Below are positions 26,078-62,575 of a stretch of 64,000 bases of DNA, one piece after another. The stretch comes from Opitutales bacterium. GTDB taxonomy: Bacteria; Verrucomicrobiota; Verrucomicrobiia; Opitutales; UBA2987. The notes under the pieces are model-generated. The model saw nothing but the letters and a program-made list of their open reading frames with translations. It made no database searches and had not been told where the DNA came from. Location of the stretch: positions 160,001-224,000 of the forward strand of contig CBDDEL010000012.1 of the NCBI GenBank assembly GCA_965226885.1, given 5' to 3'. A program made the translations under genes and the position numbers. Within the stretch, counting starts at the first letter, position 1; the number at the start of each line of letters is the position of its first letter.

Positions 26078-26482
26078 ATGAATATTTATACTCCTGAAAA
26101 TAGCCGGATTGTCCTCGAAACTGCCACTCGCGAGGTTATCGCGGAATTGGTGGGAGCTGGAATCGAGGGCACAACCGTCAACTACAGCATTGCCCATGTG
26201 AAAGTCCTGCCGGGCGGCTTGACACCGAAACACTTTCATCCCGATGTCGTCGAGACCTATTGCATCATCAATGGGCGCGGCCTCATGACACTGGACGGCG
26301 AAGAGGCGCAAGTGGGCCCCGGAGAGGTCATCCACATCAACCCGCCCAGCCACCACAAAATGGTCAACGCCTTCGAGGAAGACCTTGAAATGATCGTTGT
26401 GTGCGCCCCTTCCTGGACGCCGGATTGCACGGTTTGGCTGGAACAATGGCAGGACGGGCGTCTCGTTTCCCTGGAAACTTGA
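26078..26482 (+). CDS. Cupin domain protein
   Basis: PGGLTPKHFH..VETY...G.VIHINP..HH. Confidence 0.85.
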   Translation: MNIYTPENSRIVLETATREVIAELVGAGIEGTTVNYSIAHVKVLPGGLTPKHFHPDVVETYCIINGRGLMTLDGEEAQVGPGEVIHINPPSHHKMVNAFEEDLEMIVVCAPSWTPDCTVWLEQWQDGRLVSLET

Positions 26483-26511
26483 GATAGGTTCTACTGCTTG
26501 AGAAGCTGCCG

Positions 26512-27018
26512 GTGGATGAGATTTTCGATATCGTTGACGACCGTGATGAAGTGATCGGGCAGAGACCGCGCAGCGAAGTCCACCGTTTGGGACTCCGGCA
26601 CCGGGCCGTTCATATTTTGGTCTGCAACCGGCAGGGAGAGGTTTTTTTGCAAAAACGATCCATGAGCAAAGACACCCATCCCGGCACTTGGGATTCATCC
26701 GCGGCCGGTCATCTCGAAGCCGGGGAAGGTTATGATGAAGCAGCCGCCAGAGAATTGCAGGAAGAACTCGGCCTGTCACCCGGCGGTCTGCTGCAATACC
26801 TATTCAAGCTCGACGCAAGTCCCGCCACGGATGAGGAATTCTTGCAGGTTTACCGCATTGAAAATGAAGGACCCTTTACCCTGCAGGCCTCGGAAATAGT
26901 ATGTGGAGATTGGTTTTCTGCTGACAAAATCACGCAATGGATTGCGGAAAGGCCCGGCGATTTTCCCCGGGCCTTCATTCTCGTATGGAAAATTTATAAC
27001 GAACGGCAGACGCATTGA
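26512..27018 (+). CDS. NUDIX hydrolase (IDI/YfcD-like)
   Basis: HRAVH, LQKRS..K..PG.WD, GHLEAGEGYDEAAARELQEELG. Confidence 0.9.
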   Translation: MDEIFDIVDDRDEVIGQRPRSEVHRLGLRHRAVHILVCNRQGEVFLQKRSMSKDTHPGTWDSSAAGHLEAGEGYDEAAARELQEELGLSPGGLLQYLFKLDASPATDEEFLQVYRIENEGPFTLQASEIVCGDWFSADKITQWIAERPGDFPRAFILVWKIYNERQTH

Positions 27019-27053
27019 GCCGGAAAACAGCATCCAACATCCTGTTTCCCTCC

Positions 27054-27425
27054 CTACAATATATCCGAAGGAATCAAATCCCCATCCACAAAGCGGGGTA
27101 CGCAAAGGACGCACAGCCGGTTTCCCGAAGAGGTCTCCTCGATGACATGATGAACCCCCTTGGGGATGACGCAAAGCTCGTCCGCGCTTAATTCCTCGTT
27201 CCAGGTGCGGCCGTTTTCCGGGTTGTGGAATTTCAGCTTCACGGTGCCGTCGAGAACAAAATAGATTTCTTCAAACTTCTCGTGGTAATGCCCTTTTGTG
27301 GGCTGGCTGTTCGGTAGAACGGCCACGCTTAAGGAATCATAGTCATCGTCCGTCAGGATTTCATGAATGTTCCCGCAAGTATTGCTCGTTATGATGTGAT
27401 GGTCTTTGACTTTTTTGACAATCAT
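27054..27425 (-). CDS. Cupin domain protein
   Basis: GHYHEKFEEIYFVLDG...IPKGVHH; ATG 27425 preferred because 27485 overlaps the upstream gene. Confidence 0.82.
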   Translation of the reverse strand: MIVKKVKDHHIITSNTCGNIHEILTDDDYDSLSVAVLPNSQPTKGHYHEKFEEIYFVLDGTVKLKFHNPENGRTWNEELSADELCVIPKGVHHVIEETSSGNRLCVLCVPRFVDGDLIPSDIL

Positions 27426-27438
27426 TTTGGCCGCCGGT

Positions 27439-28383
27439 TTATTCCACTTCCTTCGGTTTGGTATAACTGCCCTCGTAAGGTTCACCAGTGCATTCGATTC
27501 CGCAGGTGTGCTGCAGGTTGGGAACCCGCGCTATGCATTCCAGCACGATGGGCACCGCCCCGGCGGTGATGCGTTGCACGCTGTTTTGCATGTCCTCGAA
27601 GGTGAAGGGGCGTGTGCCCACGGCAGGATTGGAGACGGAGTTGAGGAGCGCGAAATGGATTCCCAACTGTCGCGCGTAAATCGTTTCCGTGCCGACATTG
27701 TGGCTCACCCAGTCGGCCCCCATTTTGCGCATCATGCGGATTTCGGCTGGGGTCTCAAAACGGCCCGGGTCGTCCTGAATGATGACCCCGGATGTGTGGA
27801 TGCGGCCGTGATAACTCTTTTTGGCTTCTTCCATAAGCAGCCTCCGCAGGTCCGGGCAAAGGGGCACGGCAAAGTTCGGGAAAACGCCTTCTCGCACAAT
27901 GCCGGCAGCATTTAACACATTTTGCGGCCTTTGGTTGGCATAGAGGATTAAATCATCCGCGATGAGCAAGTCGTCGAAATCGTAACCGGTGTTGATGGCC
28001 CCGCCAGTGGCCCCGCCGAAGGCATGGGTGACACCCAATTGGTGCAGCGCCGCCCAGGTGGTGACAAATTCCCAACCCGTCTTCTGGTTTTCTTTTCTGC
28101 CCTCTTTCCCATGCATGCGGATATAGTAAAACGGCGTCCCCTTGTAACGCATGCGGTAAATGGGCGGGCTTTCCCCGGCCTCGGTTTGTACCGTAAAAGA
28201 GCCCTCCTCCTCCACCAAACCCTTGCCGAAATCCGGCGGGTAGCCAAAAGATGTGCCGCCCACCACCGCGATGGTGGTCTTTTCCTCGGCACCGAGATGT
28301 AACGGTATAGCCATGAAGGCCAATGCCACCAGACCCATGTGAAAAATGCAAATAAGATTTTTTTGTAGCTTCATTAATTTCAT
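27439..28383 (-). CDS. MTAP/MTIP-family purine nucleoside phosphorylase with signal peptide
   Basis: IAVVGGT, RMHG, ATGGAIN, GRFETPAEI, VSNPAVG; hydrophobic leader ending LGA|EEK. Confidence 0.82.
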   Translation of the reverse strand: MKLMKLQKNLICIFHMGLVALAFMAIPLHLGAEEKTTIAVVGGTSFGYPPDFGKGLVEEEGSFTVQTEAGESPPIYRMRYKGTPFYYIRMHGKEGRKENQKTGWEFVTTWAALHQLGVTHAFGGATGGAINTGYDFDDLLIADDLILYANQRPQNVLNAAGIVREGVFPNFAVPLCPDLRRLLMEEAKKSYHGRIHTSGVIIQDDPGRFETPAEIRMMRKMGADWVSHNVGTETIYARQLGIHFALLNSVSNPAVGTRPFTFEDMQNSVQRITAGAVPIVLECIARVPNLQHTCGIECTGEPYEGSYTKPKEVE

Positions 28384-28674
28384 AATTTCCTCCGTGTAGG
28401 TGGAACAGCCTGATTAATTCATTTCATTTGGCAATATTTCACTTGTAACTGCCCCTGCAAAATGTAGGTAGTTGTTTTAGAGCCTATGCTTGCTTAGTTT
28501 TTTCTATCTAAAATTATTGATTTGGAACGTTCCCCGATGAACGTGCCTAATATTGTCGGCTATGCCATTATCGAGATGGGGCCGAAAATTTGTTTTGATT
28601 TCACCTGAACGACTAATGTGTCGTTATTCCAGGTGAATTTAGCCGTTTTAAAAAATACCAAGCATAAGCATAAA

Positions 28675-29223
28675 ATGACTACTTCTCTTTTTGAACTCAA
28701 CACCGCCCGCCTTCGTTTAATCGCGGCCACCGCTGAAACCGTGAACGCGGAAATGAACGACCACAACCGATTGTCTCGGTTGCTGCGGGCCGATGTGCCC
28801 AAAAACTGGCCACCCGACTTGACCGAGGATGTGCTCGCATTCACGGCCCGTAAACTAAAAGCCAACCCGGCCGATACCGGCTGGTATTCCTGGTACATGG
28901 TCCTGGCCAAGGAATCGCCCGAAAACCCCGTAGTTATCGGAGTTTGCAGTTTTAAAGGACGGCCCAAGCGCGACGGTGTGGCCGAGATTGGCTATTCCGT
29001 TCTGCACCAGCATCGCAAAAAGGGATATACCACGGAAGCGGTTGGCCGTTTGCTGCAATGGGCTTTCGACCAGGGTGAGGTGAGGAAAATAATCGCGGAA
29101 ACATATCCAGATTTGCTAGCCTCGGTGCGGGTCATGGAGAAAAACGGTTTTCTCTTTTCCGGTCCCGGCTCCGAGGAAGGCGTGGTTCGCTACAGCAGAT
29201 CGCTCACTCGGGGCAGTCTTTAA
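28675..29223 (+). CDS. GNAT family N-acetyltransferase (RimJ/RimL-like)
   Basis: TARLRL, AEIGYSV..HRKKGYTTEA, SVRVMEKNGF. Confidence 0.88.
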   Translation: MTTSLFELNTARLRLIAATAETVNAEMNDHNRLSRLLRADVPKNWPPDLTEDVLAFTARKLKANPADTGWYSWYMVLAKESPENPVVIGVCSFKGRPKRDGVAEIGYSVLHQHRKKGYTTEAVGRLLQWAFDQGEVRKIIAETYPDLLASVRVMEKNGFLFSGPGSEEGVVRYSRSLTRGSL

Positions 29224-29251: not shown

Positions 29252-31141
29252 TTACCAGACAACAGGATGGGTTGCCCCTGTTACGACATTGATTAATCCC
29301 TCCGGAGCGCCCTCGAAAGGCGCCACCAGGCACCATTTCCAGGGTGTGCAGGTGAGGAAAACGAAGATCATGCGCCGGGGCAGTCCCGGTTCGCCGATCC
29401 ACTCCATTTCGTCTGCCGCCGCATAGAGGTTGTTCAATTCTGCAGCCACCTCATGCGGCGGGCGGGCGCTCATCAATCCGCCAATTTCAAACCGCACACG
29501 GGCCGTTATGACGCCTTCGCGTACGAGGACCCAGCCGCCCCCCATGGCCGCGAGTTCGTTGACCGCCAGGGCCATGGCGTCGTCGTCGTTGCCGATTACC
29601 CACAGGTTGTGCAAATCGTGCGACACCGAGCAAGCCAAGGCCGAACGCGGTGTTTTCGGCCCCACTGTTCTCCAGAACATTTTCCCGATTTTGCCCTGGC
29701 CCGTATAACGGTCGATCAAAGCCAGTTTGGTGATCTCCTTTTCGGCCTCCGGCAGGACCAGGCCATTTTCCACCGGGAGCGTTTCGGTCAGAAAATTTTC
29801 TTCAAAATGGAAAGGTTTGAGGACGGCCGCCTGCACCGTTTTCCTGCCCTCGGGGGCGGGTATATGAAAATCCTCGGCCCTTAGTTGGCGCGGCAAATTT
29901 ATGGTCTCTCGCGCCCACTGCGGCCAATCGATTATTGGAGGATCGAGAAGGTATTTCCCGTTTTCAGCCGCCAACATGCCATCCGCGTAAACCTGTTTGA
30001 TATCGACGGTTTCGGGGTTTTCGAGCAAAACCACGTCGGCAAAACGACCGGGAGCCAAAGACCCCACCAGGTGATCGATGCCGGCGTGTCTGGCCGGGTA
30101 GAGGCTGGCCATGGCGTAGGCGGCTTCCACCGGCGCACCGCTTTTGATGGCCACCCGCAGGTTGTGGTCGGTGGTGCCGATTTCGAGGGCTTCGGCAGCG
30201 TTGCGGTCATCCGTTGTAATCGAGAGGTGCGACCAGTCTTTTATGCCCTTTTTCTTGAAGTAAGGGATGATCTGCGGCAGGGCGTGGTAGCGCAATTGCA
30301 GGAAAATTCCCCGGTTGAGCTTGTTCCAGGCTTCCTCCGCGAAACCCACTTCGTGGTCGCTCTCCAGACCGGCGGCGGCGAAGGCGTTAATGTCGCCCAG
30401 CTCTATCAAACCGGCCCCGTGCCCCTCGATGACTCCGCCGGCATCCCGGGCCGCCTGAATGACCTCCCAAATCCGGCCGGAACCGTCTAGTTCGGTGTTC
30501 CAGACCCGGGGCCAGTCCATGACTTCCCCCAATCCGATGACCCAGGGGTGGCGGGCCATATTTTCTCTGACTTCGGTGTAGCCATAGTAGCCCCCGCCGG
30601 TTTCGTAGGGCGTTGGAGGAGTGGCCGAGCCCAGTTCGGGAAAAATTTTCAAGGGGCTGCCGTGTTCCCTCGGCATCAGCCAGAACTCGACATTGTGCTC
30701 GCCGCTGACATTGGAAAATTCGTGGGAGCCTTCCACCGTCCAGGTGTTGCCGAACGGTATTACTAACGCGGCCTCAAATTCCGGTGTCAGGTGGGAGCTT
30801 TCGATATGCTTGTGCGATTCTCCGAACCCGGGAGCGGCGTAGAGGCCCTCGGTATCGACCATTTTAATAACTTCGCCAGTCCATTGGCCGGAAGGCCCTG
30901 TCCAGGCGATGCGTTTACCCTTGATCACGATATCCCAATTCTTTTGCCAGGTGAGCGTATGCACGTCTAGCATAGTGACGTGGGCCAGAATAAGGTCGGC
31001 TTTGTCCTGGCCCATGGCCACACGCATGAGATTTTGCCGAATCCGGGTTTCCTCATCAAAGGTAAAGTCTCCCCCATCGGCCCAAAGAAAGGCGGTCCCG
31101 GCCCCAATAATGAAAAGAGAAAGGATAGTGCATTTTTTCAT
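29252..31141 (-). CDS. Adenine deaminase (AdeC family) with signal peptide
   Basis: SHKHIESS, SHEFSNV, LGEVMD, EGH, SDHE, TDD, GSLAPGRFADVV, SHDLHN; leader MKKCTILSLFIIGAGTAFLWA. Confidence 0.85.
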   Translation of the reverse strand: MKKCTILSLFIIGAGTAFLWADGGDFTFDEETRIRQNLMRVAMGQDKADLILAHVTMLDVHTLTWQKNWDIVIKGKRIAWTGPSGQWTGEVIKMVDTEGLYAAPGFGESHKHIESSHLTPEFEAALVIPFGNTWTVEGSHEFSNVSGEHNVEFWLMPREHGSPLKIFPELGSATPPTPYETGGGYYGYTEVRENMARHPWVIGLGEVMDWPRVWNTELDGSGRIWEVIQAARDAGGVIEGHGAGLIELGDINAFAAAGLESDHEVGFAEEAWNKLNRGIFLQLRYHALPQIIPYFKKKGIKDWSHLSITTDDRNAAEALEIGTTDHNLRVAIKSGAPVEAAYAMASLYPARHAGIDHLVGSLAPGRFADVVLLENPETVDIKQVYADGMLAAENGKYLLDPPIIDWPQWARETINLPRQLRAEDFHIPAPEGRKTVQAAVLKPFHFEENFLTETLPVENGLVLPEAEKEITKLALIDRYTGQGKIGKMFWRTVGPKTPRSALACSVSHDLHNLWVIGNDDDAMALAVNELAAMGGGWVLVREGVITARVRFEIGGLMSARPPHEVAAELNNLYAAADEMEWIGEPGLPRRMIFVFLTCTPWKWCLVAPFEGAPEGLINVVTGATHPVVW

Positions 31142-31146
31142 TTTGT

Positions 31147-32348
31147 TCAGATAAGTGATAAACGTTGCAGAGTCCAGAATAAGGCCACCAAGCTGATAAT
31201 GGCGGAGCCGGGGATGAGAATGGCCTTCTTGAAATGCAGCCAATTGCGAAACCACCCCACGGCGCAGAAAGCCGCACAGAGCACGGCGATTTGCCCCAAC
31301 TCGACCCCGATGTTGAAAAACAAAAGAGAGGGAACCAATTCACGGCCGGAAATTTCCAGTTCCAGAAGCACATTGGCAAACCCCATGCCATGCAACAGCC
31401 CAAACAGGAAAACTACCGCCAGCCTGGTTTTACTCAAATTAGCGCGCAAAATGTTCTCCAATCCGACATAGACAATGGAAAGGGCTATGAGCGGCTCGAT
31501 CAGACTTGACGGAAGGGTAAAAATATCCAGCACGGCCACGGCCAGGGTGATGGAGTGGGCCAAGGTAAAACAGGTTACCTGGGCCAGCAGGGGTTTCCAC
31601 CGGATGGCCAGCAGAAAAAGCCCGACGACAAAGAGGATGTGGTCGAGCCCGCCCGGGATTATGTGGGTAAAGCCCAATTCAAGATATTGCCCGGCGAGAA
31701 AAACCCAGCCCATGACGGCCTCCTGCGGCTCCGGTGGCTTTGAGCCGGATGCTTCGGTTGCTTGCCCGGCCTCGGTCTCGGCCTCAGTCAGCCGGACCGG
31801 TTGCAGGGTAAACGGCTCGATTTTCTGACCGCCTTGCAGCCAGCGGGTGATGCGTCGATTTTCACCGATCGTTTTAATGGTCAGAACAATGGGCATTTCA
31901 ACCGGTATCTCAGGATCGGTGTGAAAAGAGAACGCTGCCTCATTTTGGGGCAGTTTTTCCACTAGTTGAATTTGCGTCATGGGCGCCGCCATGGGGCTGA
32001 AAAATCGTTCACTTTTCAGCTTTGGGAGGGATGCCGATACGAATTGCGGGGCCAATCTCGCCGCGCCGTAATTGAAGTGCATTCCTGCTAAAATCCGGTT
32101 CAGGATCGGATCGAGCCGCTCTTTTTGGGCCTCCGGGGGAAGGGTGGTCAATTCGTAATAAGGTCGGGGTCCGTTGAGGATGCGCGTAAGGTCGGCTTTC
32201 ACCAGGATGCGGATATCACCGGCATTCTGGTCGATTTCCACCACAATAATAGTCTTATTGAGCAAATGACCGCTGGCGGCTGGTGTGAAGACGGTCAAAA
32301 GCCCCAAACATAAGGCGGCGTAGAAAAGGGAAAAACCTCCGGCCTCAT
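31147..32348 (-). CDS. HupE/UreJ-family membrane protein with N-terminal periplasmic domain; probable 1-nt frameshift near the start
   Basis: LGFTHI..GLDHILF, FTLAHSITL, FGLLHGMGFA, FNIGVELGQ; the ATGA-coupled ATG 32348 is one base out of frame. Confidence 0.8.
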
Positions 32349-33409
32349 TGCGCGGACGGAATTTCATCCCTGTACTTTTCCCAGTTTTCCACCAATTCGT
32401 TGACGACACGGCTGCCAACCAGGTAAACATTCTCCAGGGCGGGCAAATAGGCGGAGTAACCCGCGCCATCCTTTTTCTCACCAGCCAGGCTTTGGGCCGC
32501 CGTCAATCCTTCATGGGGCATGGAGTAGTTCGATGCTGAGCGCAGGACAAGGTATCGGCGCGGATCCACTTTTTTTGCCCCGGCCAGAAAATTGAGCGAT
32601 TGATGCGTGGCGGTGTCCTCCATGGCGGCAGTAACGAAATTTCCTTTGCCCTCCGTCCAATAGGAGACCCAATCATTAGCCCATTGGGTGAGCAATTTGC
32701 CGTGCCAGAAAGTGGATGCCGCCAAGTGGTCGCCCTTCAGGACAAAGGGCGGTCGCTGCGCAATGGGGTAATTCTTATATTTGGCACGATGTTTTTTCAA
32801 TTCTTCGAGGTCTTCCAGCGGAACATCCTTGGTCAATTGATAGGCCCACTCGACCAGACCGGCGTTTAGGTGATAGACGGCTCCCTCGTTGTCCTCCTGC
32901 CGGGGGAGTTCATAGGGTTTGGATTTACGCAATGGGATGTAGCCGGTCGGCCAGTCCGCCGGAGCTTCGCGAATGTCGATTTGATGGGCGATATCGCCAT
33001 CCACCAGCCATTCGGCCCAAGCCGCCGAAGCAAGAGACATATCCGCGGGATCGACTCCGGAAATTCCCGCCACAATCCAGTAAGCCCTGCTCAGGTCGAA
33101 CCGGTCATCCATTCCCAGGGCCATAACCGAGGCCGCAGCCCTGGCTGTACCGATCCCCGTCACCAATCCCAGAACACCTTTTTCGTTGTAGCGCAAATCC
33201 CGGTAGCCCTGCGGCATCGGGAAAACTTTGTCGAGAGGGAAGCGTTCCACCCAAGTTTGAGATTCGCCGGGTCGGTCGCCGCTATCTTCCCCCGCCTCGA
33301 ACATGGTGACGACAACCACTTTGATCGGAAGCGGTTCCGCTGCCGATGGCAATACAGCCATAAAAAGCGGTAAAATGGCCGTTGTTGATAAAATGCTTAT
33401 CATTTTCAT
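32345..33409 (-). CDS. NUP ('purine nucleoside permease') family exported protein 1
   Basis: VVVVTMFE, FDLSRAYWIVAGISGVDP, FWHG, AMED, LRSASNY; signal peptide. Confidence 0.88.
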   Translation of the reverse strand: MKMISILSTTAILPLFMAVLPSAAEPLPIKVVVVTMFEAGEDSGDRPGESQTWVERFPLDKVFPMPQGYRDLRYNEKGVLGLVTGIGTARAAASVMALGMDDRFDLSRAYWIVAGISGVDPADMSLASAAWAEWLVDGDIAHQIDIREAPADWPTGYIPLRKSKPYELPRQEDNEGAVYHLNAGLVEWAYQLTKDVPLEDLEELKKHRAKYKNYPIAQRPPFVLKGDHLAASTFWHGKLLTQWANDWVSYWTEGKGNFVTAAMEDTATHQSLNFLAGAKKVDPRRYLVLRSASNYSMPHEGLTAAQSLAGEKKDGAGYSAYLPALENVYLVGSRVVNELVENWEKYRDEIPSAQ

Positions 33410-33432
33410 GGGAGTAGCTTAAATGAGCTTAG

Positions 33433-54485: not shown

Positions 54486-55406
54486 TCAAGTGGTAATGCT
54501 TGATAATTCAACCGCCAGGAGAGTGCCCAACTTAACATTGTTGCGCACCAGTTCAATATTGCTGCGCAGGCTTTCCCCATCAGTTAGGGCTTCGATACGA
54601 GAAAGGAGAAAAGGTGTGGCGGCTTTTCCTTTGATGCCCTTTTGCTCCAATTCCGCGAGGGCCTGGGAAATTGCCGATTCCGCTTTTCTCTTCGGTATTT
54701 CGTGCTCCTTTGGGATCGGGTTGGCAATCACCATGCCGCCCTTTATTCTCATTGCCCATTTGGTGTTCAGGATATTGGCCAATTCCTCAATCGAATCGAC
54801 CCTTTGTGGGACTTCAAAACCGCTGTCTCTGGTAAAAAATGCGGGAAACCTATCGGTTTGATAACCCGCTACGGGAACGCCCAGCGTTTCCAGGTATTCC
54901 AGGGTCAGGCCGATATCGAGGATCGATTTTGCCCCGGCGCAAACTACCGCAACATCGTTTCGAGCCAATTCCGGCAAGTCGGCAGAGATGTCGAAGGTCT
55001 TATCCGCTCCCCGGTGAACCCCACCGATTCCCCCCGTGGCCATGACTTTTATGCCTGCCAGGGCGGCAATTCGGACGCTGGCCGCAACCGTGGCGGCGCC
55101 ATTTAATTTTTCGGCCACCAAAAAAGGCAGGTCGCGGCTGCTCGCTTTCAGGATTCCCTCTCCTTTTCCCAGAAACTCAATTTCCTCCTTACTCAAACCC
55201 ACCTTCAACTTTCCTTTCAGAATGGCCAGAGTGGCGGGGGTAGCGCCATTTTTTCGGACAATTGATTCTACTTCGCGAGCGGTGCGGACATTTTCCGGAT
55301 AAGGCATCCCGTGCGCGATAATTGTGGATTCCAACGCCAGGACCGGTTGTCCCCGGTCGAGCGCCGCAGCCACTTCGGGCAGCAAATCCAGGTATTCGTT
55401 CAGCAT
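54486..55406 (-). CDS. psuG: Pseudouridine-5'-phosphate glycosidase
   Basis: ALESTIIAHGMPYPEN, ATGGIGGVHRG, DISADL, GAKSILD, TPFLL. Confidence 0.96.
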   Translation of the reverse strand: MLNEYLDLLPEVAAALDRGQPVLALESTIIAHGMPYPENVRTAREVESIVRKNGATPATLAILKGKLKVGLSKEEIEFLGKGEGILKASSRDLPFLVAEKLNGAATVAASVRIAALAGIKVMATGGIGGVHRGADKTFDISADLPELARNDVAVVCAGAKSILDIGLTLEYLETLGVPVAGYQTDRFPAFFTRDSGFEVPQRVDSIEELANILNTKWAMRIKGGMVIANPIPKEHEIPKRKAESAISQALAELEQKGIKGKAATPFLLSRIEALTDGESLRSNIELVRNNVKLGTLLAVELSSITT

Positions 55407-55424
55407 TTTTTCTGGAGAAAGGTT

Positions 55425-55949
55425 CTATAATAAAGTCCCACGGATGGGATAATCGTTCGCCGGACCGCGGATATATTCCAGTCCCTGCGAGAGCGCATCC
55501 AGGTCCGGGCGTAAAAAAGGATTATTGGAAACATCGGTCAAACGCAAATTACCATCCTCGTCGATGACAAACATTGCCGGTTCCGGGTTGGGACGATCAT
55601 TTTCTTGAGCGGAGCGAGGAGGGGAAATATACAAGCCCATTTCCCGCATGTCATCCAACGTTAGACCATAGGCGACGGGTAACGTTAATTTACTTACCCG
55701 GACCAGTTGTTCGGCTTTCTCCTCGGGGTCGCCGGAAACTGCTATGATCTCCACTCGCAGATTTTTTAACGACTTACGGAGCGCTTCCAGTCGGGCCAGG
55801 TAGTGGAGGCACAGAGGGCAATGCAAACCCCGGTAAACCACAACCAGTTGCCAGTTATTATCACCTCGCGGCTTGCCGAGCTCAATGGTTCTTCCGCCCA
55901 CCAGAGGCAAAGTGATTTTGGGGAAAGAATCGGCGGCTTTTAATTTCAT
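55425..55949 (-). CDS. AhpC/TSA (peroxiredoxin-like) redoxin
   Basis: YRGLHCPLC, AVSGD, MGLY, EPAMFV, RPDL. Confidence 0.85.
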   Translation of the reverse strand: MKLKAADSFPKITLPLVGGRTIELGKPRGDNNWQLVVVYRGLHCPLCLHYLARLEALRKSLKNLRVEIIAVSGDPEEKAEQLVRVSKLTLPVAYGLTLDDMREMGLYISPPRSAQENDRPNPEPAMFVIDEDGNLRLTDVSNNPFLRPDLDALSQGLEYIRGPANDYPIRGTLL

Positions 55950-55951
55950 GG

Positions 55952-56788
55952 CTAAATAGAAGGGTACCAGCGATTTTTGTTTTTGGCCAGGCGTTCCTCA
56001 TTCCACCGGTGGAGGATGTGAGCGGCTTCATTTCCGGCCTGCACACATTTTTCAATTCCACCGTAAACAAAGTCGTCCGTAGCCCGGTTGGCGATGACCA
56101 CGGAAATCGCGCCCGCTTTTAACCCGAAAAGGCCGGCCAGGGTCAACAAGGTGGCGGCTTCCTGCTCGTAATTGAGAACCTTGGCCGCAATCAGATCTTC
56201 ATGGCGTGTCTTTTGCCAACTTTGGCGGAAGCCGCTAAAGGCGGGTCGGTTTTGCCCGCAAAAAAAAGAAGCCGTTGTCGCAGTGATGCCCGCGTGATAG
56301 CTAAACCCAAGTTTCTCACAAGCTTCAATCAAGGCCAGCACGACCTCATAATGAGCCACCGCCGGATACCCCAGGGAAACATAATTCTCACTCGTTCCAT
56401 CGAACCGAACCGAACCGGTGGAGATGATCAAATCCCCTAATTCGATGTCCGGCTGGAGCGCAGCGGTGGTTCCGACGCGAATGAAGGTGCGGCCTCCAAT
56501 AGCGGCCAGTTCCTCCAAGGCATTCGATGTCGAGGGGCCTCCGGCTCCGGTGGAACAGGCTGAAATGTCCATTTCCCTAAATTTTCCGGTGTGAACGACA
56601 TGTTCCCGGTAGGAGGAAATTTCCCTAAACTCATCCCAATAGCTGGAAATTTTGGCCACTCGATCCGGGTCGCCCGGCAATAGAATGGTATCCGCGACAT
56701 CTCCCTCGCCGCACCGTATGTGATACTGCAGCCTGCCTTTGCCCTCCGGCCGTTCCGCTTGTGAAACCCATTCTTTATCTTCCGCCAT
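55952..56788 (-). CDS. Uridine phosphorylase 2 / nucleoside phosphorylase
   Basis: QYHI, LPGDPDRV, STGAGGPS, RVGT, GQNR, NYEQE. Confidence 0.88.
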   Translation of the reverse strand: MAEDKEWVSQAERPEGKGRLQYHIRCGEGDVADTILLPGDPDRVAKISSYWDEFREISSYREHVVHTGKFREMDISACSTGAGGPSTSNALEELAAIGGRTFIRVGTTAALQPDIELGDLIISTGSVRFDGTSENYVSLGYPAVAHYEVVLALIEACEKLGFSYHAGITATTASFFCGQNRPAFSGFRQSWQKTRHEDLIAAKVLNYEQEAATLLTLAGLFGLKAGAISVVIANRATDDFVYGGIEKCVQAGNEAAHILHRWNEERLAKNKNRWYPSI

Positions 56789-56890
56789 TGTTTGATTTCA
56801 GGTTAAATTTCAAAATTGAGTCGAAAAAATGTGAATCCCGCCGCCGGTTAAGTCAATGCTGCAGCCCGATTGGCTGGCGAAGCATAGAGG

Positions 56891-56919
56891 TTGACACATT
56901 TGCCCTGCAGGTATGCGAT
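56891..56919 (+). promoter_or_regulatory. Sigma70-like promoter, predicted leaderless transcript
   Basis: TTGACA-17 bp-TGCGAT, 6 bp before ATG 56926; same geometry as 43872. Confidence 0.5.
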
Positions 56920-56925
56920 TTTCCT

Positions 56926-57918
56926 ATGGGTTTAGCAGAGGGAGTGGCAGATCTGTCGGATGAGCAGATCGACTCGTTTCACCGGGAAGGATATTTGATC
57001 GTTGAGGATGTTTTTCGGGATAACGATTTAAACGCCCTCCGCCGGGAACTCGCTGAAGGCATCGACGAGAAGATCAAAGCGCTGCAGTCGGATGGCGTTT
57101 TAAAAAACACCTATGAAACCGAAGCGCTGGAGACCCGCCTGGTTAAGATTTTTCGGGACAATGAGGAAATCGGGCGGCAGATCATGTGCCACCTGGAGGG
57201 ACTTGGAGGTAGCGGCTACCATGGCCGTGAGATGTTCAACCTCATCAAGCATCCCAAAATGCTCAAACTGGCGGAATCCATTCTCGGCCCCGAACTGGTT
57301 TCCTCGGCTATTTACCGGCTGCGGACCAAGATTCCGGGCGACAAACTGAAAGAGGTGCCCTGGCACCAGGATTCCGGCTATTTCTCTTCCCACTGCGATT
57401 CCCACCTCATTCTGACCTGCTGGATACCATTGGTCGATGTTTCCAGGGAAAATGGCTGCCTGGAAGTCATTCCGCGATCTCACCGCTCAGGCATCGTCAA
57501 GCACCATCAATGCGCCGACCGCAAGGGTTACCTCCTCATAAAAGATGAGGATCTGCCAAAAAGCGAGAAACCCACCGTGGCAATCGAAATAAAGGCCGGT
57601 AGTGTGCTCCTGCTGACTAACCTGACCGCCCATTGCTCGCTCTCCAATCGGACGGATGAAATTCGGTGGAGCGTCGATCTACGCTACCAAAGCTCGGAGA
57701 CTCCCAATAACGTGGATCTCTGGCCGGAGGAAAATCCCACCGACTATGAGAAAAATCTGCAAATCGCCTGCTCTCCGCCGGAAGCTGATTTTGTTGTCCA
57801 AAGCGTTCGCAAACCCCAAGGGGTGGTTGATTTTCAAGGTTTCCTCAAGCGCCGGGAAGCTTTTTACAATCATGGTTTTCCCAAGGAAAAACGTTGGGAG
57901 CCGGATGCCGTCCATTGA
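56926..57918 (+). CDS. PhyH-family Fe(II)/2OG dioxygenase 3 (close paralogue of 43907-44917)
   Basis: YRLRTKIPGDK.KEVPWHQD shared; start placed at ATG 56926 by comparison with the paralogue. Confidence 0.9.
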   Translation: MGLAEGVADLSDEQIDSFHREGYLIVEDVFRDNDLNALRRELAEGIDEKIKALQSDGVLKNTYETEALETRLVKIFRDNEEIGRQIMCHLEGLGGSGYHGREMFNLIKHPKMLKLAESILGPELVSSAIYRLRTKIPGDKLKEVPWHQDSGYFSSHCDSHLILTCWIPLVDVSRENGCLEVIPRSHRSGIVKHHQCADRKGYLLIKDEDLPKSEKPTVAIEIKAGSVLLLTNLTAHCSLSNRTDEIRWSVDLRYQSSETPNNVDLWPEENPTDYEKNLQIACSPPEADFVVQSVRKPQGVVDFQGFLKRREAFYNHGFPKEKRWEPDAVH

Positions 57919-59220
57919 TCAGCCGATAAAAATACCGGCAAAAGTGGCGGTGGAGAGGGTGGCGCAGGTTCCCCCGATCAAAGCTCGCAAGGCGAAACGG
58001 GCCAGGTTTAAGCGCTGGCTGGGGGCCAGCACGGATATTCCACCTATCTGCACGGCCACTGAGGCAAAATTGGAAAAGCTGCAAAGGGCATAGGTAGCGA
58101 TTACGATAGATCGCTGATCGGTCAACGCGCCCTTTTCTATCAGTTCCGCCATCGAGATGTAGGAAACGGTCTGGGTCAGAACCATACCCTCGCCCAGCAA
58201 TTGACCGACCGCGAGCAGGCTGCCAGTGTCGACTCCCACGATAAAGGCGATTGGCGCGAAGAGGATGCCGAGGATAAACTGCAGGGTTAGCGCTTCATAA
58301 GCTCCCCCTGTTACATTGTAAATGATTGGATTGAGCCCCGTAACCGAACCAATCCAATGATTCGTGATGTGGTTCAGCATCGCGACCAAGGAGATGAAAA
58401 CGAGCACCATCGCCCCCACGTTTACAGCCAGGCGCACTCCTTGGGCGGTCCCGGTTGTGATTGAATCGAACAGGTTCAGCCCAACCGAACCCGACGGGAT
58501 TTGCAGGTCTCTGGAGACTGCTTCGCTCTCAGGAAGTAATAACTTGGCAAAAACAATGGCAGCCGGGGCCGACATGACGGAGGCGGCGATGAGATGCTTG
58601 CCAAACATGACTTGTTTTTCCAGGTCGTCCCCGCCCAGAATGAAAATATAGGCAACCAGCACACTGCCGGCGATGGTGGCCATGCCACCGGTCATGAGGC
58701 AGGCGAGCTCCGATCGGGTCATGCGTTCGAGGTATGGTTTAACAATCAGTGGCGCTTCGGTCTGGCCGATAAAAATGTTGGCCGCGGCAGCCAAACTTTC
58801 CGCACCAGACAGCCGCATGGTCTTGCTCATCAACCAGGCAAAAACAAAGACGATCTTTTGTAGTATGCCCAAATAATATAAAACAGAGGTGAGGGCGGAA
58901 AAGAAAACCACGGTCGGCAATATGCGAAAGCCCCAGACCGCCCCGATCTCGCGGCTTGTAACCAGATCTCCAAAAAGAAAACGACTTCCAACCGTTGAGA
59001 ATTCAAGGATGCTGACAAAAAAACGGGAACCGGCCTCGACCATGTATTCGACCAGGGAAACTTTCAGGATCAGGATGGCCAACGCCAGTTGCAGCAAAAG
59101 TCCACCCGCAATGAGACGCCAGTTGATCCCCTTTCGGTTTTCGCTTAAAGAGTAACAAATCAGCATAAGCGCCGAAAGGCCCAATATAGCCCGACCGACG
59201 CCACTCAAAAACTCCACCAT
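57919..59220 (-). CDS. NupC/CNT family nucleoside transporter 3
   Basis: FIGQTEAPL, GMATIAGSV, YALCSFSNFAS. Confidence 0.93.
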   Translation of the reverse strand: MVEFLSGVGRAILGLSALMLICYSLSENRKGINWRLIAGGLLLQLALAILILKVSLVEYMVEAGSRFFVSILEFSTVGSRFLFGDLVTSREIGAVWGFRILPTVVFFSALTSVLYYLGILQKIVFVFAWLMSKTMRLSGAESLAAAANIFIGQTEAPLIVKPYLERMTRSELACLMTGGMATIAGSVLVAYIFILGGDDLEKQVMFGKHLIAASVMSAPAAIVFAKLLLPESEAVSRDLQIPSGSVGLNLFDSITTGTAQGVRLAVNVGAMVLVFISLVAMLNHITNHWIGSVTGLNPIIYNVTGGAYEALTLQFILGILFAPIAFIVGVDTGSLLAVGQLLGEGMVLTQTVSYISMAELIEKGALTDQRSIVIATYALCSFSNFASVAVQIGGISVLAPSQRLNLARFALRALIGGTCATLSTATFAGIFIG

Positions 59221-59308
59221 TCCTGCTAGTAAAGGGAGAGACAGTCAGATGTCGAAAGAAAACCCAGCATGCGTTTTCTCGTTATACAGAAAAACAAGAG
59301 GTGTGACA

Positions 59309-60190
59309 TCAATCCCGGTAATATTCCGTTTCATCGACCAACTCGCCGTTTTGATTGAAGGCGTTGCCGAAAACATGGCCGGTGTAAAACTCCGATTTCG
59401 GATCTTGTTTGGGCAGACGGATATGACCCTGTTCGCTACGCACAACCTCTCGCCGGCGGCCGCACATTAACAAACCCGTGTCTTTCCACACCGTGTCGCT
59501 AATTTGATAAGCGTCATCGGCGCGGTATTCGAAAACAATGCCCCGGCGCGGTTTACCCGACAGATTGGCCGGTGAACCGTGCAATGTAAGGCCGTGATGT
59601 ATGCTGATCCCGCCGGTTTTAGGGATGATCTGCGCAACCTTGGATTCATCCTCCCAATAATGGCTTTCCTGGCACTCGGCCGTAAAAAGACCATCCACAG
59701 AATGGTTCAGGTATCCCAATTTATGGCTTCCCTTGACCATTTGCATACAGCCGTTTTCGGGGGTGGCATCGTCCAGCATAATCATTACGGCCAGCACTGA
59801 GGAGTTGGTGTGGGGAAAAAAGGCCAGGTCCTGATGCCATGCAAAGGTTCCCTTTCCCTTGGTCGGCGGCTTGGTTGCCAGTTTGGAATGCTGTAGCTGA
59901 ATGTCCGGGCCGATTAAGGGGACAAGCCGGTTCAAAATCCTTGGATCCCGCGCCAAATCCATAAAAATAGAATCCAATGTGGTGATTTCCAATAGGTGGA
60001 CCGCCTTGGTGGCATGCCCTCTCTGCTTCAGCTGTTCCTTAAGCGCATCGGATTCCGTGGCCCGGCGCAGCTCATCCACTTTCTCCATAGGGAAAACATC
60101 ATCGACAACCAAAAATCCATTTTCCTGGAATTCTTCGATTTGCCCTGTGGTTAAACCATCCTGGTCTTTGCGAATTGCTCTTTCAATCAT
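59309..60190 (-). CDS. PhyH-family Fe(II)/2OG dioxygenase 4
   Basis: FQENGF, KPP, WHQD, LDDATPENGC...GSH, LHGS..N....RR. Confidence 0.9.
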   Translation of the reverse strand: MIERAIRKDQDGLTTGQIEEFQENGFLVVDDVFPMEKVDELRRATESDALKEQLKQRGHATKAVHLLEITTLDSIFMDLARDPRILNRLVPLIGPDIQLQHSKLATKPPTKGKGTFAWHQDLAFFPHTNSSVLAVMIMLDDATPENGCMQMVKGSHKLGYLNHSVDGLFTAECQESHYWEDESKVAQIIPKTGGISIHHGLTLHGSPANLSGKPRRGIVFEYRADDAYQISDTVWKDTGLLMCGRRREVVRSEQGHIRLPKQDPKSEFYTGHVFGNAFNQNGELVDETEYYRD

Positions 60191-60659
60191 GGCTGTATCT
60201 CAAACGGGATTACCCGTATGATTGTGATGAATTAGTAAAATTAACGGCTTCTGGAGTTTTCGAGCGTATTTTGCTCTTTTCAGGTTCCTGCCACGCGTTG
60301 AGAGGGGATAAACGGGTTTACGTTTGCACTATTAACCACATTAATTTCCGGATTACCATCCTCTTTGGGAGTGAATGTCCTCATCAACTTCACTATAAGT
60401 GCATAGTATAAAAACGTTCCGGAATTTCGTTTGGCTTGTATGGGGTTTGACAGTTTGTTTATCCTCTTGGGTAACGCTCCACTTGACCGCGCCTACTTTT
60501 GATTTTACCACTCCCTAACTTATTCTTGTAGACAGGTCTTGACCCCTACCTAAACCTGACCACGTCCCCTGTGAAAATTTCACTTCCAGATTATTGGCTA
60601 TCTTTCGGTGGTAGTCCTAATTTACTGAAACCAAAACCTCATAAATTACTTCTAGGGGA

Positions 60660-61040
60660 TCAGTCATCCCTGACCACAGCAATACAATCGATTTCGAACT
60701 GAATTTTGTTAAGGCAACCGGTGAGTGTGGTGCGTGAGGGGAAGGGCTTTTTGAAATATTCTTTGTAGACCTCGTTGAAAACCGGCACCTGCTCCTTATC
60801 CCTGACATAGTTTCTTGTCTGCACCACATGCTGCAAGTCGCTGCCCGTATCCTCCAGGATCTTTTTCAAGTTTTCGATGGATCGGCGCACTTCACCTTCG
60901 AAAGTATCGGGGACAATGTTTCCCTCCGCATCAACTGACGCCTGTCCGGAAACAAAGAGGAAGCCGCCCGACTTCACGACAGGACTGAATGGGAGAAAAG
61001 AGACCGGAGTCCCTTCCTTTTCTGGATATTCAATGTTCAT
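60660..61040 (-). CDS. RidA/YjgF family protein
   Basis: PFS, LFVSGQ, NLKKILE, FNEVYKEYF..PFPSR, EIDCIA. Confidence 0.9.
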   Translation of the reverse strand: MNIEYPEKEGTPVSFLPFSPVVKSGGFLFVSGQASVDAEGNIVPDTFEGEVRRSIENLKKILEDTGSDLQHVVQTRNYVRDKEQVPVFNEVYKEYFKKPFPSRTTLTGCLNKIQFEIDCIAVVRDD

Positions 61041-61059
61041 AAAAATTAACCCTTACTAG

Positions 61060-61125
61060 CCGAGATTTCCCATATGAAAATTCATAATCGTTGAAAATTG
61101 CTACTTTCCAATATTTCGATCCAAT
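61060..61125. repeat. 66-bp dispersed repeat, copy 1 (upstream of ridA)
   Basis: 58/66 identical by manual ungapped alignment to 63825-63890. Confidence 0.85.
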
Positions 61126-61270
61126 TTTGCTTCTTCAATACGCTTTGGCAATTGTTTCTCCCTGAGAATGGCCACCTCGGTCATCTCTAACGGGGAGGTG
61201 AAATACTTGTCATGGTGGACCACCTATCGGAAAAGGATCAACCGGCGGTCTGGGTAAACCGCGCTTGTTT

Positions 61271-62575
61271 TTAATCCAACAAACCAATCCGGTAATGCTC
61301 TTCGCCGGATGAATCCAAAAAGCGAGCTTGCAGACTCGTCACCACCCCGGCGCGCTGTTCGGCTTCGAGGAGCATGAAGATGAAGGGGATGCCCATGTCC
61401 TTGATCAGGCCGGGATGCGGAACGTTGGCGGCCTTGATGATACGGCCGTGCATGGGGGTGCTGATAAGCTCATAGATATCATAACCTGCCAGTTCTTTGG
61501 TGTCATGAAGCAGCACACGAGAACGGTGGATGTCACCTCCTATCAGGACGACGCCACCGATCTTCTTTTCGCCGAGAAATTCGAACAGAGCCCGTCGTTC
61601 GTGAGGATAGCTGCCCCAATGGTCTAGTTTGCCAGGCCGGGTGGCTTCGTTCCAAATCATTCCACAGGCCAACACCTTGACTGGAGCGGTCGAGCTTTCA
61701 AGGCCCTCTCGCAGCCAATCCCATTGAGCTTGACCCAGCAGGGACGCGCGATGTCTCAGAAAGGGCGATGGTTCGGTCGCCGCGAAATAGCGGGTGTCCA
61801 GCAAAAAGACTTCGACCGGGCCGTAGCGAAATTTGGTGTAGATCCCATTTTCGCCATCCCCGTATGAAGGGTTGGCGTGATACTCGATAAAGGCGCGTCG
61901 CGAACGCTCTTTGCCGGGCAAACGCCCGTCCATGTTATCGGCGCCAAAGTCGTGATCATCCCAGGTGCCGTACCAGGGTGTTGAGTGCAGCAGCTTCGCC
62001 ATGGCCTCAACGCTGGCGAAGTCGGCGTATCGGGCCCGTTGTTTGTCCAGCTCTGTGGTGTCGATGTATGGGGTGTCGCCCAGCAATACCACGGCATCGA
62101 TCTCTTCGCGCGCCGCTTGCTTCCACAACTGGTTGGTGCCGGGATCTTCATAGGCGCAGGAACCAAAAAAGAGGCGAGTCGAGCCATCGGCAGTCGGCTC
62201 GGGCGCGGTGCGGAAGCCGTAGTTTTCGACCAGCGTCTTCCTGTCGGAGTCTTTGATGAGGTAAGTGTACTCGTGATTGGGAGAGAGGCCGTCAACAGTC
62301 CAAACCATGCACAAATCGCGATCCGTTGACGCCGACCCTTGGAAGGATCGCATCGTTACCTGGTCGTCGCGAACATCAAGCGTGTAATTCCCGGCCGTCC
62401 GGACCCGCGCCCAGATAAAGACGCGGTTCGGTTCGGTATGCCCAATGAACGGCCCCTGTAACAGACCGGATACAGGCGACGCCCCAGAATTCTCAGACGC
62501 AGCCATCCCCGATTCATCCGCCAGAGCAATTAAAGATAATCCGGCAATCCAACCTATGAAGGTGTTACATCTCAT
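61271..62575 (-). CDS. PhoD-like alkaline phosphatase/phosphodiesterase
   Basis: FGSC, LGDTPY, WDDHD, LDTR, LLGQAQW.WL, GDIH; signal peptide. Confidence 0.88.
   Translation of the reverse strand: MRCNTFIGWIAGLSLIALADESGMAASENSGASPVSGLLQGPFIGHTEPNRVFIWARVRTAGNYTLDVRDDQVTMRSFQGSASTDRDLCMVWTVDGLSPNHEYTYLIKDSDRKTLVENYGFRTAPEPTADGSTRLFFGSCAYEDPGTNQLWKQAAREEIDAVVLLGDTPYIDTTELDKQRARYADFASVEAMAKLLHSTPWYGTWDDHDFGADNMDGRLPGKERSRRAFIEYHANPSYGDGENGIYTKFRYGPVEVFLLDTRYFAATEPSPFLRHRASLLGQAQWDWLREGLESSTAPVKVLACGMIWNEATRPGKLDHWGSYPHERRALFEFLGEKKIGGVVLIGGDIHRSRVLLHDTKELAGYDIYELISTPMHGRIIKAANVPHPGLIKDMGIPFIFMLLEAEQRAGVVTSLQARFLDSSGEEHYRIGLLD

Follow-up and report, generated by a model that had tools for sequence, protein, structure and literature searches.

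The island at positions 26078-62575 of the window, which is the whole 64,000-nt stretch of contig CBDDEL010000012.1 analysed here (assembly GCA_965226885.1, Opitutales bacterium), raises the question of whether its nucleoside uptake and cleavage genes and the Fe/2-oxoglutarate (2OG) oxygenase genes interleaved with them serve one pathway for modified nucleosides. The gene map was obtained by scanning the long open reading frames (ORFs) between 26 and 63 kb against Pfam and NCBIfam, with 43 ORFs in the first Pfam scan. Over about 36 kb, the island encodes a TonB-dependent receptor, a 5'-nucleotidase, a PhoD, three NupC, three NUP, two MTAP/PNP-like and two Udp-type proteins, three deaminases and PsuG/PsuK, together with five Fe/2OG oxygenases (four PhyH proteins of PF05721 and one DIOX_N+2OG-FeII_Oxy protein), a PRA-CH (HisI) paralogue, an alpha/beta hydrolase, a NUDIX protein, two cupins and RidA. 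All gene classes named in an initial annotation of this DNA were found in the numbers it gave; it had overlooked a 1.6-kb insertion sequence (IS), a GNAT protein, a HupE/UreJ_2 membrane protein and an AhpC peroxiredoxin.

The locus is very probably a cluster for nucleoside and nucleotide scavenging and catabolism, and its oxygenases likely act on nucleoside-derived substrates. Whether the oxygenases would go as far as de-modifying modified nucleosides is evenly balanced, and so is the full explanation that includes this role. Receptor-led uptake, dephosphorylation and cleavage of nucleosides had been proposed initially and was supported by the gene families and by the presence of psuG/psuK in the receptor strand run. 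Since psuG/psuK share this run with the receptor, 5'-nucleotidase, udp and nupC genes, the arrangement points to a locus that handles at least one modified nucleoside.

Concentration of nucleoside genes in the genome

The clustering of these genes in the island exceeds chance. In the 5.48-Mb genome (G000), PF05721 and PF06516 were counted by profile search and the other island proteins by tblastn. PF05721 produced 19 matches, corresponding to approximately 18 genes, of which four lie inside 36.5 kb compared to about 0.12 expected (Poisson estimate of approximately 1e-5, made post hoc). Three of the five genomic matches of PF06516 (NUP) were in the island, as were both udp genes, three of the six nupC genes and the genome's sole copies of PsuG, PsuK and the adenosine-deaminase-like (ADA-like) protein.

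Gene map of the island

The features are listed below in window coordinates, with the modules (A, B and C) to which they were assigned by comparison with relatives.

26078-26482 (+), cupin (Pfam, NCBIfam; module A)
26512-27018 (+), NUDIX protein (Pfam, NCBIfam; module A)
27054-27485 (-), second cupin (Pfam/NCBIfam; module A)
27439-28383 (-), PNP_A, MTAP/PNP-like phosphorylase with signal-like N-terminus (module A)
28618-29223 (+), GNAT protein (module A)
29252-31255 (-), ORF of the adenine-deaminase-like protein (AdeDeam), likely to c.31144 (Adenine_deam_C; signal-like if started at Met38)
31147-32481 (-), ORF of the HupE/UreJ_2 membrane protein, likely to c.32340 (Pfam HupE_UreJ_2)
32345-33409 (-), NUP1; 33433-34494 (-), NUP2; 34504-35562 (-), NUP3 (PF06516, E 1e-108 to 1e-112)
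29252-35562 (-), module A operon of NUP3, NUP2, NUP1, HupE/UreJ_2 and adenine-deaminase-like genes
35761-36651 (+), PNP_B, MTAP/PNP-like (Pfam, NCBIfam)
36713-38206 (+), adenosine-deaminase-like protein (ADA2/ADGF-like) with signal-like N-terminus
38453-39349 (+), PhyH1 (PF05721)
39373-40239 (+), alpha/beta hydrolase, esterase-like, with signal-like N-terminus (Hydrolase_4, Abhydrolase families); opens the module B operon
40237-41833 (+), IS element with DDE_Tnp_1_4 transposase (Pfam)
41854-42282 (+), HisI-like PRA-CH paralogue (Pfam, NCBIfam)
42283-42726 (+), cytidine deaminase, CDA (Pfam, NCBIfam)
42875-43828 (+), DIOX_N+2OG-FeII_Oxy oxygenase, 'IPNS/T7H-like' (Pfam), below IPNS-like
43907-44917 (+), PhyH2 (PF05721)
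44963-46267 (-), NupC1 (module B)
46274-47575 (-), NupC2 (module B)
47590-48288 (-), Udp1 (module B)
48341-50008 (-), ORF of the UshA-like 5'-nucleotidase, likely to c.49948 (module B)
50060-53242 (-), TonB-dependent receptor with CarboxypepD_reg, Plug and barrel domains (module B)
53466-c.54430 (-), PsuK (module B)
54486-55406 (-), PsuG (PF04227; module B)
55425-55949 (-), AhpC peroxiredoxin (part of the module B run and of the module C order)
55952-56788 (-), Udp2, Udp-like (module C)
56926-57918 (+), PhyH3 (module C)
57919-59220 (-), NupC3 (module C)
59309-60190 (-), PhyH4 (module C)
60660-61040 (-), RidA (Pfam, NCBIfam)
61271-62575 (-), PhoD-like phosphatase with signal-like N-terminus (Pfam, NCBIfam)

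Inspection of the N-termini showed that the ORFs of AdeDeam, HupE, the 5'-nucleotidase and PhyH3 start too early. Many island proteins missed the NCBIfam equivalog cut-offs, while Udp1 and CDA passed them.

Conservation of the three modules in relatives

The relatives compared were fragmented metagenome-assembled genomes (MAGs) of one genus (G001 to G004, and a MAG contig, L022/L023, labelled Opitutales) and are not independent; L022/L023 is probably the same genome as G002. The comparison showed that the 36-kb island is a derived, genome-specific fusion of three modules that are separate in relatives, with PNP_B and PhyH1 added at the joint between modules A and B. The initial proposal of a single conserved system of the PUL (polysaccharide utilisation locus) kind was therefore abandoned, as the modules are separate in relatives and no SusD-type family was matched among the 43 ORFs of the first Pfam scan. 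The term PUL-like fits just loosely, in the sense of a receptor-led catabolic cluster.

Module A has the order cupin, NUDIX, cupin, PNP_A, GNAT, (adenine deaminase, HupE), NUP array and ADA. G001 and G004 share this gene order and also the ExbB and lipoprotein genes that flank it. NUP arrays of 2, 4, 3 and 3 genes lie beside ADA in all four genus relatives, where the gap between NUP and ADA is approximately 0.3 kb and neither PNP_B nor PhyH1 occupies this spot. In G001, G002 and G004, ADA is followed by genes for a P-type ATPase and a GT21 glycosyltransferase, both of which are on contig C9 in G000.

Module B has the order hydrolase, HisI-like, CDA and IPNS-like, facing NupC1, NupC2, Udp1, 5'-nucleotidase, receptor, PsuK and PsuG. 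Orthologues of the catabolism run were found in the same order with 69-90% identity in L022/L023 and 56-89% in G001. The hydrolase orthologues (81-82% identical) directly precede the HisI-like gene in L022 and G001, and three genomes (G000, L022 and G001) have HisI-like, CDA and IPNS-like in this order. Receptor orthologues of 83-87% identity were present in three of the four genus relatives (G001, G002 and G003), while G004 had only a 38% paralogue and none at orthologue level was found in the other four genomes of the family. In both relatives, module B is preceded by an AraC-GNAT regulator, for which no match was found in G000, and its operon is followed by an Amidohydro_2 gene, whose orthologue in G000 is on contig C11. 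PhyH2 is present in L022 and absent from the G001 copy. The 91-kb contig of G001 that carries module B has nothing of modules C or A (no PhyH3, NupC3 or Udp2).

The order of module C (AhpC, Udp2, PhyH3, NupC3, PhyH4) was also found in G003:C236 with 71-87% identity. In L023, Udp2, PhyH3 and NupC3 are together, inverted beside module B, and a PhoD-family gene and a cupin gene flank module C. A DASS-family (Na_sulph_symp/CitMHS) transporter gene was also observed there between AhpC and NupC3 (L023:12487-13989, +), with no orthologue in G000 at E ≤ 1e-20; the pairing of this dicarboxylate importer with 2OG oxygenases may be noteworthy.

Insertion sequence and genome rearrangement

The IS at 40237-41833 spans from the hydrolase stop codon to 20 bases before the HisI-like ATG. 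It is 1.6 kb long and its transposase is frameshifted in this copy, the intact form being 456 aa. Approximately 256 near-full and 330 total copies of the same IS were counted in the genome, including another in the window at 15301-16671. The copies sum to roughly 0.5 Mb, about one tenth of the 5.48-Mb genome; the genus relatives have 3.4-4.3 Mb. Flanking genes that adjoin each other in relatives are scattered over other contigs in G000.

The ORF 41599-42282 had initially been read as HisI in full. Its first 78 or so codons are the end of the IS, and the true start of the HisI-like gene is at approximately 41854, a Met common to relatives. In another public run, X3, one contig passes directly from 40235 to 41830, with no IS and just two other differences in 3.3 kb. 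A near-identical strain thus lacks the IS, and the insertion into the operon of the hydrolase and HisI-like genes is therefore recent and polymorphic.

Pyrimidine and pseudouridine branch and the HisI-like protein

Udp1 passed both of its models (337.1 against a cut-off of 262 for NF008383 and 282.5 against 280.3 for TIGR01718), while Udp2 scored slightly below (263.3 against 280.3). CDA passed NF004064 with 100.5 against 74. PsuG matched PF04227 with 431.8 bits (E 1.6e-129) over profile positions 1-291 of 291. The full PsuK frame, which adjoins psuG downstream, had pseudouridine kinase as its best NCBIfam model with 146.7 bits against a cut-off of 540. This frame (53466-54488, -) is open from the single TGA of psuG, is in the same frame as psuG and encodes the N-terminal kinase motif. 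No ATG, GTG or TTG occurs before 54179, a distance of approximately 100 codons, so a complete kinase domain requires a non-canonical start. In G001, psuG and psuK are in different frames. Read-through, a sequencing issue or use of a non-canonical start may explain this oddity.

The HisI-like protein scored 91 bits against an NCBIfam cut-off of 126. The other genomic copy (contig C10, 54% identical) was also below it with 108.6 bits, and thus the cut-off does not separate the two. The DCDGD metal motif of HisI was considered as a sign of neofunctionalisation and rejected since both genomic copies carry NCEQ at that place.

Exported purine branch and NUP proteins

Signal peptides were judged by eye and by hydropathy. 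Signal-like N-termini were found in PNP_A, NUP1-3, the ADA-like protein, AdeDeam (from Met38), the hydrolase, the 5'-nucleotidase, PhoD and the TonB-dependent receptor. No signal was found in the five oxygenases, CDA, Udp1, Udp2, PsuG/PsuK, PNP_B, RidA and AhpC. The signal-like N-termini of AdeDeam and the ADA2/ADGF-like protein suggest that purine deamination may take place in the periplasm. AdeDeam scored 288 bits with TIGR01178 (cut-off 472), and the best NCBIfam models of PNP_A and PNP_B were MTAP models with 84 and 75 bits (cut-off 275).

A permease role of NUP1-3, as implied by the family name, was ruled out because the N-terminal signal of each protein is its sole hydrophobic segment, with no further transmembrane segment, and the NUP1 model resembles 5'-methylthioadenosine (MTA)/S-adenosylhomocysteine (SAH) nucleosidases. 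A search of NUP1 against PDB sequences gave no matches. The AlphaFold2 model of NUP1, made from six sequences, had a pLDDT of 74.6 and a pTM of 0.79, and was matched by Foldseek to MTA/SAH nucleosidases and futalosine hydrolase with E values of 4e-11 to 7e-9, probability 1.0 and TM(target) of 0.59-0.74; for MTA/SAH nucleosidases alone, E was approximately 4e-11 and TM(target) 0.63-0.74. Alignment of the NUP family to the PNP/Udp family with hhalign was weak (E 0.064). MTA/SAH nucleosidases, among which 5b7p/5b7q in the PDB is a periplasmic enzyme of Aeromonas, resemble NUP1 in predicted fold, and NUP1-3 carry signal peptides, but sequence identity is just 11-16% and the NUP chains exceed the nucleosidases by about 120 residues. 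Outside the island, the genome's other two NUP proteins (G000:C16:571941-572933 and G000:C15:200331-201299) are without a signal peptide.

We read NUP1-3 as putative exported nucleosidase- or phosphorylase-like enzymes, and the PF06516 name 'purine nucleoside permease' is probably a misnomer for bacteria. No description of bacterial NUP function was found in the literature. This reading would correct a widespread annotation, as bacterial 'NUP permeases' are probably exported nucleosidase-like enzymes.

Oxygenases and their linkage to nucleoside genes

PhyH1-4 all matched PF05721 above the gathering cut-off (81-122 bits), and WHQD, the distal His and an Arg are invariant in their alignment. The H-x-D...H triad is intact in all five oxygenases. 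The best PDB sequence matches were EctD for PhyH4, human PHYH for PhyH2 and PhyH3, and SnoN for PhyH1. The PhyH4 model (pLDDT 85.3) had its best fold matches with proline hydroxylase H11, MysH, SnoN/K, GriE and EctD. The IPNS-like protein matched the uncharacterised 3oox (2e-65), then an ethylene-forming-type enzyme and then thymine dioxygenase (2e-37). It keeps the residues Arg190, Tyr194, the H-x-D...H triad, Arg286, Ser288 and Phe292 of thymine-7-hydroxylase (T7H); Arg190 and Phe292 are also kept in the non-T7H relative 3oox, and Phe292 also in 9ovh.

A precedent for the proposed chemistry exists in PF05721. According to the available text of PMC12709175, free 2'-O-methyl nucleosides are demethylated with 2OG by the metagenomic FJS, by human PHYHD1 and by PF05721 homologues from bacteria, plants, fungi and viruses; these enzymes are inactive on nucleotides and RNA, and the activity is described there as widespread in PF05721, and that text gives no genomic context. 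For the Neurospora crassa T7H, the available text of PMC4787775 gives Arg190, Tyr217 and Phe292 as substrate-binding residues, Tyr217 being the second substrate-sandwich residue.

Within the genus, linkage of oxygenases to nucleoside genes recurs in several separate arrangements. Udp2 and NupC3 flank PhyH3 in three genomes (window, L023 and G003), and PhyH4 adjoins NupC3 in the window and in G003. A 64% PhyH4 homologue in G004 is part of a Rieske, NUP, PhyH and MFS run. Among PhyH1-like genes of 53-57% identity, the G002 copy neighbours a NUP gene in a context that includes aldolase, FGGY and cupin genes, and the G001 copy is divergent from a gene of the PF05014 nucleoside-deoxyribosyltransferase family; a 41% copy is near PRT and guaA. 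The IPNS-like protein is rare, with 3 of 401 genomes of the phylum positive at E ≤ 1e-40 (G000 included). Two distant homologues adjoin a PRK/uridine-kinase-family gene (G111) and PNP_UDP_1 and PRT genes (G407), and the paralogue in G000 is two genes from an Endonuclease_1 gene.

Several results weigh against a nucleoside role for the oxygenases. PHYHD1 (2opw) ranked 12 of 17, 5 of 13, 4 of 17 and 6 of 14 among the PDB matches of the PhyH proteins (E 2.7e-9 to 1.7e-5) and was never the best, and in the fold search with PhyH4 it ranked 49-50, behind proline, leucine and ectoine hydroxylases. None of the four is specifically PHYHD1-like by sequence rank or, for PhyH4, by fold; the PF05721 2'-O-demethylases in the available text of PMC12709175 give the de-modification idea a precedent. 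In the IPNS-like protein, Tyr217 of T7H is replaced by Ile and Asn294 by Gln. The PhyH4 orthologues of G001 and G002 (81-83%) and a G006 homologue (62%) are without nucleoside neighbours, PhyH1-like copies of another family (40%) have P450, SDR and DAO genes as neighbours, and module B of G001 is without PhyH2, PhyH3, NupC3 and Udp2. All modules come together only in this genome, which an IS has heavily rearranged. In addition, PhyH matches number 34 to 58 or more in each of three relatives, and with PhyH genes so abundant in the family some chance adjacency is expected.

Beyond the genus, the linkage is not conserved for the PhyH2/3 subfamily. This subfamily is widespread (197 proteins at E ≤ 1e-10, approximately 321 aa), and the best 80 of 569 confirmed metagenome stretches were surveyed (739 kb, 1.2-21 kb each, 40-51% identity). 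With tblastn at E ≤ 1e-8 over at least 40% of the query, none of the 80 loci had NupC, NUP, Udp, PNP, CDA, ADA, adenine deaminase, PsuG, 5'-nucleotidase, receptor, HisI-like or IPNS-like neighbours, while RidA was found in one locus and a PfkB kinase in one. Pfam assignment of 77 of the 141 neighbouring ORFs, from 25 of the 80 loci, showed mostly sugar-type genes (AP_endonuc_2, isomerases, fucosidase, SSF/ABC transporters and PfkB) and further PhyH genes, which also counts against the nucleoside role. The linkage that had been predicted for a neighbourhood search was thus recurrent in the genus and, for PhyH2 and PhyH3, missing from both the 80 metagenome loci and the G001 locus; the lack of conserved linkage that had been named beforehand as refuting the initial proposal was in part observed.

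Two side observations were made on distribution. An AP_endonuc_2 gene (xylose-isomerase-like TIM barrel, approximately 399-429 aa) is near the PhyH2/3 gene in 6 of the 25 loci (L026, L027, L033, L045, L047 and L051). Proteins 53-65% identical to PhyH4 are found in Paenibacillus, Chloroflexi, Planctomycetota and Latescibacteria records, while only 1 of 401 phylum genomes, G000 itself, has PhyH4 orthologues; this patchy distribution suggests transfer.

Proposed pathway and alternative explanations

The pathway proposed here, for the use of nucleic-acid breakdown products, is built on gene families, gene order, copy numbers, conservation, predicted export and the predicted NUP fold. The TonB-dependent receptor would import nucleotides, nucleosides or short oligonucleotides across the outer membrane. 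In the periplasm, the UshA-like 5'-nucleotidase and the PhoD-like phosphatase would strip phosphate, and the ADA2-like deaminase, the adenine-deaminase-like protein, the MTAP-like enzyme, the three NUP proteins and the esterase would process purine nucleosides. The three NupC proteins would import nucleosides across the inner membrane, after which two Udp-type enzymes, CDA, the PNP-like enzyme and PsuK/PsuG would turn uridine, cytidine and pseudouridine into bases and ribose phosphates in the cytoplasm. We infer the substrates of all these enzymes and the roles of the oxygenases and the HisI-like protein. The five Fe/2OG oxygenases most likely make further nucleosides usable, in that groups which obstruct the phosphorylases are taken off or oxidised, the best-supported chemistries being 2'-O-demethylation of free nucleosides for the PhyH-type enzymes and oxidation of a base methyl group for the T7H-related enzyme.

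A stricter version, in which the island is a dedicated recycling line for modified RNA nucleosides, seems a long shot. Here modified purines would be the task of the NUP proteins and both exported deaminases on the periplasmic side, each PhyH would remove a different ribose or base alkyl group with 2'-O-methyl first, the T7H-like enzyme would take the C5-methyl off thymine derived from ribothymidine, and CDA would take cytidines substituted at N4 or C5. The HisI paralogue would open the ring of N1-alkylated adenosine, e.g. 1-methyladenosine, and the reactive imines and peroxide arising in these reactions would be cleared by RidA and the peroxiredoxin. The parent enzyme HisI opens an N1-substituted adenine ring; to our knowledge, there is no enzyme that opens the ring of N1-alkylated adenosine such as 1-methyladenosine.

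The locus may alternatively serve ordinary scavenging of nucleosides and nucleotides for carbon, nitrogen and phosphorus, with the oxygenases, from a family abundant and mobile in this lineage, as passengers of IS-driven rearrangement that act on unrelated small molecules (e.g. sugars or osmolytes). We consider this rather unlikely. Chance would place far fewer than four of the approximately 18 PhyH genes within 36.5 kb, adjacency of PhyH and nucleoside genes recurs in differing arrangements and with varied partners (NupC, Udp, NUP and the PF05014 protein) in G001-G004, and the divergent Udp2/PhyH3 pair is kept with NupC3 in three genomes despite inversion relative to module B. The passenger explanation does draw on the 80 distant PhyH2/3 loci, where nucleoside neighbours are lacking and sugar genes dominate, on the absence of PhyH2 and PhyH3 from the G001 locus, on the unrelated contexts of the PhyH4 orthologues (G001 and G002) and the G006 homologue, and on the number of PhyH matches in three relatives. 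The approximately 330 IS copies, the scattering of the relatives' flanking genes over other contigs and the best fold matches of PhyH4 to amino-acid and ectoine hydroxylases are in line with it as well. If the oxygenases are unrelated to nucleosides, the locus would still be a nucleoside-scavenging cluster in a verrucomicrobial lineage, ordinary in kind though unusually complete.

Salvage of DNA nucleosides of the fungal type, in which PhyH enzymes would 2'-hydroxylate deoxynucleosides to ribonucleosides, the T7H-like enzyme would oxidise thymine in steps to 5-carboxyuracil and an amidohydrolase would decarboxylate this to uracil, so that extracellular DNA feeds the uridine pathway, is improbable. 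Among the PDB matches of the IPNS-like protein, thymine dioxygenase comes third, and most of its 2OG- and base-stacking residues are kept, but Tyr217 is replaced by Ile and the best match is the uncharacterised 3oox. An Amidohydro_2 (PF04909) gene follows the IPNS-like gene in G001 and PhyH2 in L022, and isoorotate decarboxylase presumably belongs to this family; however, the protein had no PDB sequence match to isoorotate decarboxylase (it matched only 4i6v at 4e-5 and 2qpx) and its G000 orthologue on contig C11 is outside the locus, so its candidacy as this decarboxylase was dropped for want of sequence support in the PDB search. The PF05014 gene beside the PhyH1-like gene of G001 and the Endonuclease_1 gene near the G000 paralogue of the IPNS-like gene would fit DNA salvage, while no gene for a pyrimidine-deoxynucleoside 2'-hydroxylase was found in the literature, and we know of no gene family for a 2'-hydroxylase of deoxynucleosides. 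Salvage of environmental by-products of S-adenosylmethionine (MTA, 5'-deoxyadenosine and SAH) with the MTAP-like and NUP proteins as core is highly improbable. The pyrimidine, pseudouridine and receptor genes would be left unexplained, no methylthioribose or 5-deoxyribose pathway genes were seen among the window ORFs in the Pfam scan, and the MTAP models that are the best NCBIfam matches of PNP_A and PNP_B were matched far below their cut-off. The resemblance of the NUP model to MTA/SAH nucleosidases would agree with such salvage, as would the adenosylhomocysteinase gene that adjoins module B in G001 and L022. This gene was rejected as a clue to SAH salvage, since it passes one AhcY equivalog cut-off (387 bits against 275 for NF004005, below the 497.6 of TIGR00936) and lies on another contig in G000; it may be a housekeeping copy.

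Relation to known systems

No locus of such composition was found described in the literature, in agreement with the initial annotation, which knew of none. The nearest described receptor-led nucleoside-scavenging loci are the ribose utilisation systems (RUS) of Bacteroidetes in the available text of Glowacki et al. (bioRxiv 10.1101/574913). In RUS, as described in that text, and in the island, an outer-membrane TonB-dependent transporter leads the cluster, the nutrients contain ribose, and nucleoside-cleaving enzymes and sugar or nucleoside kinases are present. However, the Pfam scan recognised no SusD-like partner, ribokinase or ribose permease in the island, which has three NupC proteins for the inner membrane, phosphorylases, deaminases, PsuG/PsuK and five 2OG oxygenases, and its nearest named relative is labelled Opitutales and not Bacteroidetes.

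In E. coli, pseudouridine catabolism is presumably encoded by the yeiC-yeiN pair with a neighbouring NupC-family transporter. The island likewise has its PF04227 glycosidase gene directly upstream of the PfkB kinase gene and nupC in the same strand run, but the pair is embedded in a run of receptor, 5'-nucleotidase, udp and nupC genes and the kinase scored 146.7 against the enterobacterial cut-off of 540.

With FJS/PHYHD1, the PhyH proteins share PF05721, the H-x-D...H triad and a cytoplasmic location, and the free nucleosides that are substrates of those enzymes would be products of the phosphatases and transporters of the locus; by sequence or fold PhyH1-4 are not specifically close to PHYHD1, the member covered by the comparison. 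With fungal T7H as given in the available text of PMC4787775, the IPNS-like protein shares the DIOX_N + 2OG-FeII_Oxy architecture, the 2OG ligands and the stacking Phe, but it has Ile for Tyr217, its nearest solved relative is 3oox and the candidate decarboxylase gene is not in the locus.

Little has been described of how environmental bacteria dispose of or feed on modified nucleosides from RNA turnover, and an enzyme acting on free 2'-O-methyl nucleosides was first reported as late as 2025, without genomic context in the available text (PMC12709175). The locus offers a concrete candidate set of four PF05721 proteins, a T7H-related oxygenase, a HisI paralogue and CDA beside transporters and phosphorylases.

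Other features of the window

The first 22 kb of the window have unrelated housekeeping and IS genes, among them an IS21-type pair (Mu-transposase C-terminal domain and IstB) and a DDE_3 transposase upstream of the island at 6839-10910 (+). The G+C profile showed no compositional break at the island, and no riboswitch was matched in Rfam over the whole window at gathering thresholds. A sigma-70 promoter scan of 44000-63900 gave 14 sites compared to 17.3 expected. A hairpin with a 12-bp stem and 9 G-C pairs was observed in the gap between the receptor and 5'-nucleotidase genes (49982-50009, -) and may be an attenuator or processing site inside the operon. For the receptor gene only, two exact short contigs were found in one metatranscriptome run, where DNA carry-over is possible. 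Finally, a BNR/sialidase-like gene at the right edge (62601-63812, -) has a 90% identical partial copy at G000:C16:449749-450615.

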